Shown: positions 50,210-51,458 of the stretch, piece by piece | How positions within the stretch are numbered: the first letter of the stretch is position 1 | How the letters are laid out: every line of letters starts with the position of its first letter | Assembly: GCA_011390645.1 (NCBI GenBank) | Contig: JAABRY010000001.1 | Span: 7,192-71,191, forward strand | DNA from: Gemmatimonadota bacterium | Lineage (GTDB): Bacteria > Gemmatimonadota > Gemmatimonadetes > Gemmatimonadales > GWC2-71-9 | DNA length: 64,000 nucleotides | Direction: 5' to 3' | Notes under the pieces: model-generated | The model's database searches: none | What the model saw: only the letters and a program-made list of their open reading frames with translations | What the model was told of the DNA's origin: nothing | Made by a program: the position numbers and the translations under genes

Positions 50210-51274
50210 GTGCATCGCACCCGGTGGACGCTGTGTCTGGTGATTGCGTGGAGCGTTGCGCCCCTGTCGGCGCAGCGCATCACGTGGCGCACCGACGCTG
50301 CGCTCTATGGTGACAACACCGAATTCTTCACTCCATTTCGTACTGGAGAGACGATCCTCGGCAAACAGCTCACCACCTGGCTCGCGGCAACGCCCACCGA
50401 TCGCGTCGAGTTGCGGCTCGGACTCTTCGCCGACGCCAAGACAGGGAGTGAGTCGTACGCCGATACGATCATCCCGGTGATCAGTGTGCGGTACCGCACC
50501 TCCCATTCGCTGGGTGTCCTCGGCACACTTGAGACGGTCCGACGCCATGGGCTGCTCGAACCGCTGATGGTCACGACTCGCGAGCTGACCGCACCGATCG
50601 AAGGCGGGATGCAGTGGATCGAACGACGCGGGCGGTTCACGGGCGACGCGTGGATCAATTGGCAAAAACTCAATACCGACAAACAGCGGGAGCAGTTCGA
50701 GATGGGCGTGGTCGCTGAGCTGGACGTTGGCCGCGGGTTCTCGGCCGGCGTCCAGCATCTCTGGTACCATCGCGGTGGGCAACTGCACGATGCCGGGGTC
50801 CCGGTGAGCAACAACCGGGTCACGGCACTCGGACTCCGATGGGCCGATAGCCTCCCCGTCGTTCGCGCGGCCTCACTCGCCGGTTGGCGTCTGCACAGCG
50901 AGGGGCACATCGATCCTGCCTATCCCGCCGAGCGGCCCGCGAATGGCCGAGGCACGTACCTGCGTGCCGGGATCATGCCATGGCGCAATGTGGAGCTGTT
51001 CGGGATCTGGTGGCGCGGGCGTGACTTCGTGGCCAACGCCGGGGACAACAACTACAACTCGACCGGCCAGGATCCAGACGTCTACCGCAGCGCGCGTCGC
51101 TACACCGAGCTTGGTGTCCAGCGACGAATCAGCGGGTCGGGAGGCACGCAGTTCGACGCCGAGCTCCGCTTCCACCGCATCGACAACGAGCAGAGTGAGG
51201 CGTTCTTCAATACGCCATGGGAGATCAGCTATCGGGTGATCGTCAGGGTGCCGGTGGAGGTGGGGGTGCGGTGA
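50210..51274 (+). CDS. Hypothetical secreted, possibly outer-membrane beta-barrel protein
   Basis: GTG at 50210 gives the signal peptide VHRTRWTLCLVIAWSVAPLSAQ. Beta-rich sequence with no family recognised. The stop TGA lies inside the first CGGTGAA heptad. Confidence 0.5.
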   Translation: MHRTRWTLCLVIAWSVAPLSAQRITWRTDAALYGDNTEFFTPFRTGETILGKQLTTWLAATPTDRVELRLGLFADAKTGSESYADTIIPVISVRYRTSHSLGVLGTLETVRRHGLLEPLMVTTRELTAPIEGGMQWIERRGRFTGDAWINWQKLNTDKQREQFEMGVVAELDVGRGFSAGVQHLWYHRGGQLHDAGVPVSNNRVTALGLRWADSLPVVRAASLAGWRLHSEGHIDPAYPAERPANGRGTYLRAGIMPWRNVELFGIWWRGRDFVANAGDNNYNSTGQDPDVYRSARRYTELGVQRRISGSGGTQFDAELRFHRIDNEQSEAFFNTPWEISYRVIVRVPVEVGVR

Positions 51275-51458
51275 ACGGTGAACGGTGAACAGCGAACCGC
51301 GGTGTCATCCCGAGCGCAGCGAGGGATCTCCACGGCCCGGGTACGCGACAAGTCTGGATGGGCGCGTGGGGGAGTCTGGAGATCCCTCGACTTCGGCGCT
51401 GCGCGCCTTCGCTCGGGATGACAGTTTGTTCCCTGTTCGCCGTCCGCCGTTCGCCGCG
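51269..51458. repeat. About 190-nt composite palindromic element (heptad flanks plus GTCATCCCGAGCG...CGCTCGGGATGAC core)
   Basis: Left flank CGGTGAA x3 CAGCGAA CCGCG. Core arms TGTCATCCCGAGCG (51303-51316) / CGCTCGGGATGACA (51410-51423) and CGAGGGATCTCC (51320-51331) / GGAGATCCCTCG (51378-51389). Right flank is the inverted heptads GTTCGCC-type. Confidence 0.85.

Follow-up and report, generated by a model that had tools for sequence, protein, structure and literature searches.

The protein that binds the Neisseria repeat NTS, with the sequence CGTCATTCCCGCGMAVGCGGGAATCYRG, is SsnA, which has 94 aa and a single GIY-YIG domain (Chenal et al. 2025, PMC11893778). SsnA cuts single-stranded DNA only, on the strand that carries the motif and a few nucleotides 5' of it, and no binding of RNA was seen with the Neisseria protein (PMC11893778). 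Cutting of NTS is governed by the three bases 5' of its palindrome, and no base matters more for binding by SsnA than the C that directly follows the palindrome (PMC11893778). Ssn homologs exist in many phyla, where they are flanked by related motifs termed SRM, and binding and cutting restricted to single-stranded DNA were demonstrated for the homologs from Neisseria and Wolbachia (PMC11893778). In the Neisseria system there are up to hundreds of orphan copies of the repeat per gene. The published SRM search pattern was built by hand from 29 genomes, and the same paper also draws an analogy to REP sequences and RAYT proteins (PMC11893778).

Layout of the palindrome

We analysed a palindrome of about 190 nt, located at about 51269-51458 of a 64-kb stretch of DNA from a Gemmatimonadota bacterium. 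This whole stretch, which has a G+C content of 67%, is called the window. The element is intergenic; it lies between two plus-strand genes that are 226 nt apart and fills the greater part of this gap. The features of the locus are as follows.

49835..51274, plus strand: upstream gene, given as the longest ORF; its orthologs are called Lipid_A_deac (PF28590)
51269..51302, plus strand: left outer flank, CGGTGAA three times, CAGCGAA, then CCGCGG; period 7, 3.1 copies, 100% match; part of inverted repeat I1
51303..51331, plus strand: left SRM-like arm, TGTCATCCCGAGCGCAGCGAGGGATCTCC; exact match to a widespread 25-mer, with stem covariation
51332..51377, no strand assigned: variable 46-nt centre, which holds a direct repeat of AGTCTGGA (D5)
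51378..51423, minus strand: right SRM-like arm, reading TGTCATCCCGAGCG[AAGGCGCGCAGCGCCGAAGT]CGAGGGATCTCC on the minus strand; inverted repeats I3, I6 and I17
51424..51458, plus strand: right outer flank, GTTTGTTCCCTGTTCGCCGTCCGCCGTTCGCCGCG; heptads complementary to the left flank; inverted repeats I1 and I2; conserved in the relative L201
51501..52088, plus strand: DUF305 gene with a signal-peptide-like N-terminus; Pfam PF03713, E = 5.8e-41

The true start of the upstream gene probably lies later than 49835 because the longest ORF overlaps that of an SSF transporter. Its stop codon TGA (51272-51274) is situated inside the first CGGTGAA heptad. A Pfam scan of this ORF gave no match; the Lipid_A_deac call comes from synteny and from precomputed Pfam hits in the relatives L201, L203 and L207. 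The closest homologs of the DUF305 protein bear Gemmatimonadota names.

An earlier note, made from the sequence alone, had described a composite palindrome with paired heptad flanks and inner arms, and all of these sequence features were recovered at their coordinates in the window. The palindrome has two layers, outer arms made of heptad repeats and an inner pair of inverted copies of TGTCATCCCGAGCG-NAG-CGAGGGATC. The left and right flanks pair over 30 nt at 83% (I1). On the plus strand the right flank consists of the heptads GTTCCCT GTTCGCC GTCCGCC GTTCGCC, and its reverse complement reads CGC GGCGAAC GGCGGAC GGCGAAC AGGGAAC. In the inner layer TGTCATCCCGAGCGCAG at 51303-51319 pairs with 51407-51423 (I3; 17 nt, 94%) and CGAGGGATCTCCA at 51320-51332 pairs with 51377-51389 (I6; 13 nt, 100%), which leaves a centre of 46 nt when 12-nt arms are taken. 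The left arm is composed of T, GTC (51304-51306), the hairpin ATCCC-GA-GC-GCA-GC-GA-GGGAT (51307-51327) and C (51328). The right arm is the same motif with a GC-rich hairpin of 20 nt (51390-51409) inserted at the triloop, where GGCGC-GCA-GCGCC folds; expanded arms of this type were also seen in the loci L207, L032, L052 and L072. These two arms form the one arm pair within the 64-kb window.

Folded as RNA, the segment 51260-51465 reached -133 kcal/mol as compared to -91 ± 4.4 kcal/mol for shuffled sequences (z = -9.4), and 0 of 200 shuffles equalled it. As single-stranded DNA the 129-nt core yielded -43.9 kcal/mol with z = -6.2. The structure of the palindrome is far beyond chance. An Rfam search of the window in gathering and E-value modes assigned no family to the element; it returned tRNAs elsewhere and weak microRNA-precursor noise. 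Weak matches to microRNA precursors are typical of any long hairpin. No terminator, promoter or U-tract was found at the element.

Spread of the arm motif and the hairpin within each arm

The exact 25-mer GTCATCCYGAGCGNNGCGARGGATC of the left arm was present in at least 120 species-representative genomes from more than 12 phyla and in at least 80 contigs of the viral collection. With 21 fixed and 2 two-fold positions, the chance expectation was estimated at about 0.07 matches in 596 Gb. Among the matches listed, the genomes belonged to Acidobacteriota, Chloroflexota, Gemmatimonadota, Planctomycetota, Verrucomicrobiota, Omnitrophota, Patescibacteria, Bacillota, Bacteroidota, Cyanobacteria, Alpha- and Gammaproteobacteria, Nitrospirota, Bdellovibrionota and Synergistota. 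The motif class as such was found, again among the matches listed, mainly in Acidobacteriota, Chloroflexota, Gemmatimonadota, Planctomycetota, Bacillota, Cyanobacteria and candidate phyla.

In the fetched loci the motif occurred both as lone arms, which were common, and as convergent pairs. Pairs had an outer length of mostly 61-148 nt, the window core being 119 nt long. The centres of other family members were unrelated in sequence and variable in length. Because the centres are unrelated and arms are found alone or paired, the unit that recurs is the arm of 25-30 nt, itself a hairpin, and neither the 121-nt core at 51303-51423, which the earlier note had proposed as a search query, nor the 190-nt composite. 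The peptide strings HPERSEGSP and LRAFARDD, on which that note had remarked, were indeed encoded in frame +2 of the element (as CHPERSEGSP and LRAFARDDS), and other copies translated to the same strings, i.e. HPERSEGS, VILSAAKDL, ...SLRSG and CAQDD. Full-text literature searches for the motif and the peptide strings retrieved nothing relevant.

The hairpin of an arm comprises a stem of 5 bp, a tandem G.A/A.G step, a second stem of 2 bp and a triloop, with GTC before and C after it. We examined this structure in 150 distinct arm variants at the pairs A4-T24, T5-A23, C6-G22, C7-G21, Y8-R20, G11-C17 and C12-G16. Two-sided changes were seen at all seven stem pairs. There were 110 double-change cells versus 30 ± 4 in shuffled controls, none of 500 shuffles reaching as high a count, and 87% of the cells were paired versus 23-47% with the partner column slid. 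At positions 8/20 the exact matches listed had T-A 192 times, C-G 37 times, T-G twice and C-A not once. With DNA energy parameters, a single arm folded no better than its shuffles (z = +0.5 and -0.2). As judged from the aligned arms, the support for the small hairpin is comparative and not thermodynamic. When the paired element was folded as single-stranded DNA the long arm-to-arm hairpin dominated; it is therefore not assured that the small hairpin is accessible when arms are paired.

Both window arms read TGTCAT at the 5' side and end in ...GGGATC. T was found at position -1 in 86% of 168 arm flanks, and at column 25 at least 70% of the 150 arms had C. GTC was demanded by the extraction filter, so its invariance in the alignment of the 150 arms (A3) is by construction.

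Nuclease genes flanked by the motif and assignment of its class

In three unusually long elements (L152, L154 and L192) the arms enclosed an ORF of 92-96 aa with a Pfam GIY-YIG match at E = 1e-12 to 1e-15. When the plasmid collection was searched by tblastn with the protein of L154, matches appeared in two N. gonorrhoeae chromosomes that were filed as plasmids. The gonococcal match was an ORF of 94 aa flanked by nine exact NTS copies; it was 45-48% identical to the proteins of L152, L154 and L192 (E = 1e-23 to 1e-26). The arm-flanked proteins of 92-96 aa with their single Pfam GIY-YIG domain are thus homologous to the gonococcal SsnA ortholog, and may be candidate members of the Ssn nuclease family (CDD cd10448), with which length, domain content and homology would agree. 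An NCBIfam search with the nuclease gave no match, and the protein search returned at least 3,948 nuclease clusters. The closest solved structures were those of BH0048 (PDB 1ZG2, E = 6e-19) and EF2693 (1YWL, E = 2e-14), structural-genomics proteins of the UPF0213 / YhbQ type, for which we know of no link to repeats.

The association was examined reciprocally with 80 metagenome loci that were fetched by the nuclease protein alone. All 80 matched the gonococcal protein at E <= 1e-8 with a median identity of 48%. The 64 loci with at least 250 nt on both sides of the gene were kept, and the motif GTCATCCYGAGCG was scored within 250 nt of the nuclease gene with up to 2 mismatches allowed. It was present on both sides of the gene in 41 of the 64 loci, on one side in 20 and on neither in 3. 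Thus 61 of 64 nuclease genes had the motif nearby, with a chance level estimated at about 1%, and the link between the motif and SsnA-like genes is demonstrated.

This association holds at the level of the family and not for the window copy: neither the 64-kb window nor the orthologous loci of 8 kb contained an ssn homolog. A GIY-YIG gene near L095 was of a more distant type and without flanking arms. In 200 motif-anchored loci there were 406 arms and five adjacent ssn genes, which means that most arms are orphans like those of the window copy.

The nuclease gene also bears on a REP- or REPIN-type element served by a RAYT, i.e. an IS200/IS605-like Y1 transposase. In general appearance REPs are similar, being short extragenic hairpins that often stand in inverted pairs or clusters, and in the REP/BIME/REPIN systems, as in the present one, such hairpins go with a gene of one copy that encodes a protein acting on hairpin DNA. 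REPs typically have a conserved GTAG head. The arms lack it and differ in motif otherwise, and their associated gene encodes a GIY-YIG nuclease instead of a Y1 HUH transposase. We regard a REP/RAYT origin as scarcely credible.

The layout of the NTS/SRM motifs, GTC(A/T)Y followed by an imperfect palindrome and then C, maps one-to-one on the window arms, which for this reason we read as Ssn-related motifs. The determinant of NTS cutting corresponds to the GTC of both window arms, and that of NTS binding to the conserved C25. Further likenesses are that the motif is directional and mostly intergenic, has many orphan copies and flanks genes whose products are GIY-YIG proteins with one domain and a length of about 94 aa. 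Unlike NTS, the stem of the window class contains the tandem G.A/A.G step and a triloop, and the window copy is without a nearby ssn gene and nested in heptad-repeat arms. By sequence, the window arms are members of a class that was named in 2025 (NTS/SRM) and not a new kind of element. The earlier note had listed a match to a known named element as a refutation; with the named class at hand (PMC11893778), an unknown element can no longer be claimed. Membership of the motif in this family is demonstrated, as is its hairpin.

The published SRM pattern, HGTCWYN(0-2)YYVSBRHN(0-5)WNVSBRGN(0-2)RNCYNB, serves to search for SRMs and does not define them. It recognised none of the two window arms and none of the 64 ssn-flanking regions, and found nine of nine Neisseria NTS copies. 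The window class is missed because the extra G.A/A.G step breaks the pattern. Thus a motif class has been overlooked by the published SRM pattern.

History and predicted role of the window copy

Orthologous intergenic regions were taken from relatives whose DUF305 protein was 81-90% identical. L201 has kept the left arm and, on both sides, the heptads GTGAACG / CGCCGTT, and is without the centre and the right arm of the window. Its arm differs from the window arm by a compensatory change of A4-T24 to G4-C24. L203-L205 carry an inverted pair of the L201-type arm variant between decayed heptads, and L207 and L208 lack heptads and have a single arm whose loop is expanded. In L206 synteny was lost and no arm was found. 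The relatives with synteny all carry at least one arm, which implies that the site held an arm before the lineages split. Judged by these alignments, the window copy is old and was inherited vertically at its site, and pairs can decay to single arms.

No sign of a recent insertion was detected, neither an empty site nor a target-site duplication. None of the orthologous loci presented an empty site, and a BLAST with joined flanks across the fetched loci produced only self matches inside arrays. The flanks of the window copy, CCGCGG/T...A/GTTTGT, are without a target-site duplication. Among 84 distinct elements there were no direct repeats of 4-8 bp; those of 3 bp numbered at most 3 at offsets 0-3, which was not above the shuffled control, and repeats of 2 bp showed a weak excess at one offset (12 vs 3).

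These data speak to the idea of a classical MITE, a derivative of an insertion sequence whose DDE transposase would recognise TGTCATCC...GGATGACA as terminal inverted repeats with TG...CA ends. Such repeats with TG/CA ends are present, the copies are dispersed and 61-148 nt long, and partial GTCATCC repeats occur at some ends. Like the bacterial MITEs Correia, ERIC and Nezha, the elements are small and intergenic, have terminal inverted repeats and form long hairpins. On the other hand, no target-site duplication of 3-8 bp was seen at any offset in the 84 elements, nor was an empty site found. The only type of gene between arms was that of the GIY-YIG nuclease; long versions otherwise enclosed nested repeats and never a transposase. 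In addition, lone arms are frequent and covariation is internal to each arm. Hence, unlike these MITEs, the window class is without target-site duplication and parent insertion sequence, and its unit is a self-pairing arm. We consider a MITE very improbable. The earlier note had suggested a widespread MITE/REP-like element and proposed a search for target-site duplications. A widespread repeat with the same peptide strings it is, but the search revealed no target-site duplication, be it at the window copy or in the 84 elements, no transposase and no empty site.

The heptads were evaluated separately. The window contains at least five hairpins of the type (GGTGAAA)n-loop-(TTTCACC)n and several other heptad arrays. 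Within the 64 kb the heptad hairpins are mostly located at the 3' ends of genes, often between convergent genes. The SRM pair is nested in a heptad hairpin built from the related heptad GGTGAAC; such nesting had been suggested before and is borne out by L201, which keeps the heptads around a different central part. SRM pairs with flanks of tandem repeats exist in two other Gemmatimonadota genomes as well (L095 and L144). Across phyla the association of heptads with arms was weak: heptads were found 5' of 2% of the arms versus 0.2% of random windows, a control that included coding DNA. Complementarity beyond the arms amounted to 4.8 vs 3.9 of 15 bases and was clear only in L086, L095 and the window. 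We take the heptads to belong to the host genome rather than to the SRM family. As candidate family traits, heptads 5' of arms and an extension of the palindrome past the arms were both rejected, the one for its weak association and the other for its weak effect. The literature on heptanucleotide repeats yielded only loosely related papers.

In a mainly RNA-based role the element would be transcribed with the upstream gene, and its hairpin, placed between the two co-directional genes, would terminate transcription, block 3' exonucleases or be a site for RNase III; the element would then be conserved for this function. The RNA fold of the 190-nt hairpin is very stable, the element begins at the upstream stop codon, in the usual place of heptad hairpins in this genome, and arms are kept at the site in relatives with a compensatory change. 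Yet there is no U-tract, terminator-like site or Rfam match. Covariation favours the small hairpin within the arm and lone arms are common, to which a long RNA stem is a poor fit. Moreover, the motif tracks the gene of a DNA nuclease, and Neisseria SsnA does not bind RNA. We thus rate a mainly RNA-based role as unlikely; an RNA role could possibly coexist with the SRM reading.

Taken together, we favor the view, and hold it to be likely, that the core is an inverted pair of NTS-like SRMs, a gene-less orphan that was vertically inherited and would be a substrate of a putative Ssn encoded in trans. By analogy to Neisseria, the Ssn nuclease would bind the hairpin of an arm in single-stranded DNA and cut the same strand a few nucleotides 5' of it. 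In an inverted pair each of the two strands has, towards its 5' end, a single motif in the correct orientation. Whichever strand is exposed as single-stranded DNA in replication, repair, transformation or conjugation would accordingly receive a cut at the element's outer border, which in the window copy is the junction with the heptad flanks. Two such cut junctions are predicted. On the plus strand cleavage should occur a few nucleotides 5' of GTC, at the 3' end of the left flank, and on the minus strand the cut zone should lie at the 5' end of the right flank. The window copy may be regarded as an orphan derivative of an SRM-ssn-SRM cassette. It would then need an Ssn nuclease from a gene at another place in the genome, and we infer its cleavage, a cognate nuclease in the host genome and any consequence for the host.

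Two further proposals are more tentative. SRM pairs of the GTCATCC-GAGCG class might be non-autonomous mobile elements that are copied or moved in trans by Ssn via single-stranded DNA, which we deem rather doubtful. If true, this would be a GIY-YIG-based mobility without target-site duplication and would account for the near-identical 25-mers in more than 12 phyla. As a speculation, the tandem repeats of 7-8 nt 5' of Gemmatimonadota arms (window, L201, L095 and L144) might be scars from the repair of repeated Ssn cuts at this position.

By itself the window locus is ordinary, an orphan copy that is old and whose effect on the neighbouring genes, if any, is hypothetical. Of some interest are how widely the motif class is spread over the phyla, that the published pattern fails to see it, and the heptad context. 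The analysis gives an identity to a sequence that recurs in genomes from soil and sediment, and annotators can mask the spurious ORF peptides derived from it (VILSEAKDL, HPERSEGS, ...SLRSG). The data indicate that the published pattern covers less than the full breadth of the Ssn/SRM system. With one motif class invisible to this pattern, the counts of SRM genomes and the catalogue of nuclease-site pairs of interest for single-stranded DNA tools are probably underestimates.

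Composite elements and arm variants in other genomes

The composite design seen at 51269-51458 of the window, in which a pair of Ssn-related hairpin motifs (SRM) is nested inside inverted heptad-repeat flanks, recurred in two Gemmatimonadota MAGs. In one of them (L095:3760-4020) the SRM pair lies between inverted tandem repeats of GGGCGGAC octamers, in the other (L144:1880-2040) between inverted CCCACCG/CCTCCCG heptads. Both share the composite design with the window element; the repeat units differ.

A recurrent subtype of the SRM arm carried an additional GC-rich hairpin at its triloop, usually with AGTCGA after it.

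Arms with the GC-rich triloop hairpin
51390-51409, window
3870-3893, comparison locus L207
comparison loci L032, L052 and L072

Dense and regularly spaced arm arrays were found at four loci, L158 (Aminivibrio), L212, L281 and L290, with a step of 30 nt in L290 and 22 nt in L281. In appearance these arrays resemble BIME-like clusters.

Heptad-repeat hairpins of the window

The window contains a family of heptad hairpins of the form (GGTGAAA)n-loop-(TTTCACC)n together with further heptad arrays, located mainly at the 3' ends of genes or in the gaps separating convergent genes.

Heptad-repeat hairpins and arrays, window
30206-30270
32404-32470
39186-39252
46259-46322
57361-57436
Further sites: 6250-6676, 35180-35336, 38481-38506, 57715-57746

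Because 7 mod 3 is 1, three heptad units place TGA in all three frames on either strand. In one of the GGTGAAA hairpins, the sequence TGTCA...GGATGAC occurs within the left arm plus loop (30212-30236). This single instance, with a likelihood of about 2% by chance, could represent a relic SRM pair. The three tRNA genes of the window (12339-12510 and 13951-14024; Rfam) have no connection with the SRM element.

Arm-flanked GIY-YIG nuclease genes

Among the protein matches listed, many nuclease entries were 100-140 aa long compared with about 93 aa for the domain. Gene callers have probably read the arms beside the gene as part of its open reading frame, which would account for tails like ...ADPSLRSG. 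The plasmid collection includes, under the label of plasmids, two N. gonorrhoeae chromosomes of 2.17 Mb each, NZ_CP119140.1 (L291) and NZ_CP119142.1, from which the NTS-flanked SsnA ortholog was taken. An ssn-like GIY-YIG gene is also present on Planktothrix agardhii plasmid p1 (L292; NZ_LR882964.1, 18847-19131), where the arms are low in GC (TGTCATTCTGAGTGAAACGAAGAATC). With an MmeI-type restriction-modification gene on one side and DISARM drmA on the other, this gene is located within a defence island.
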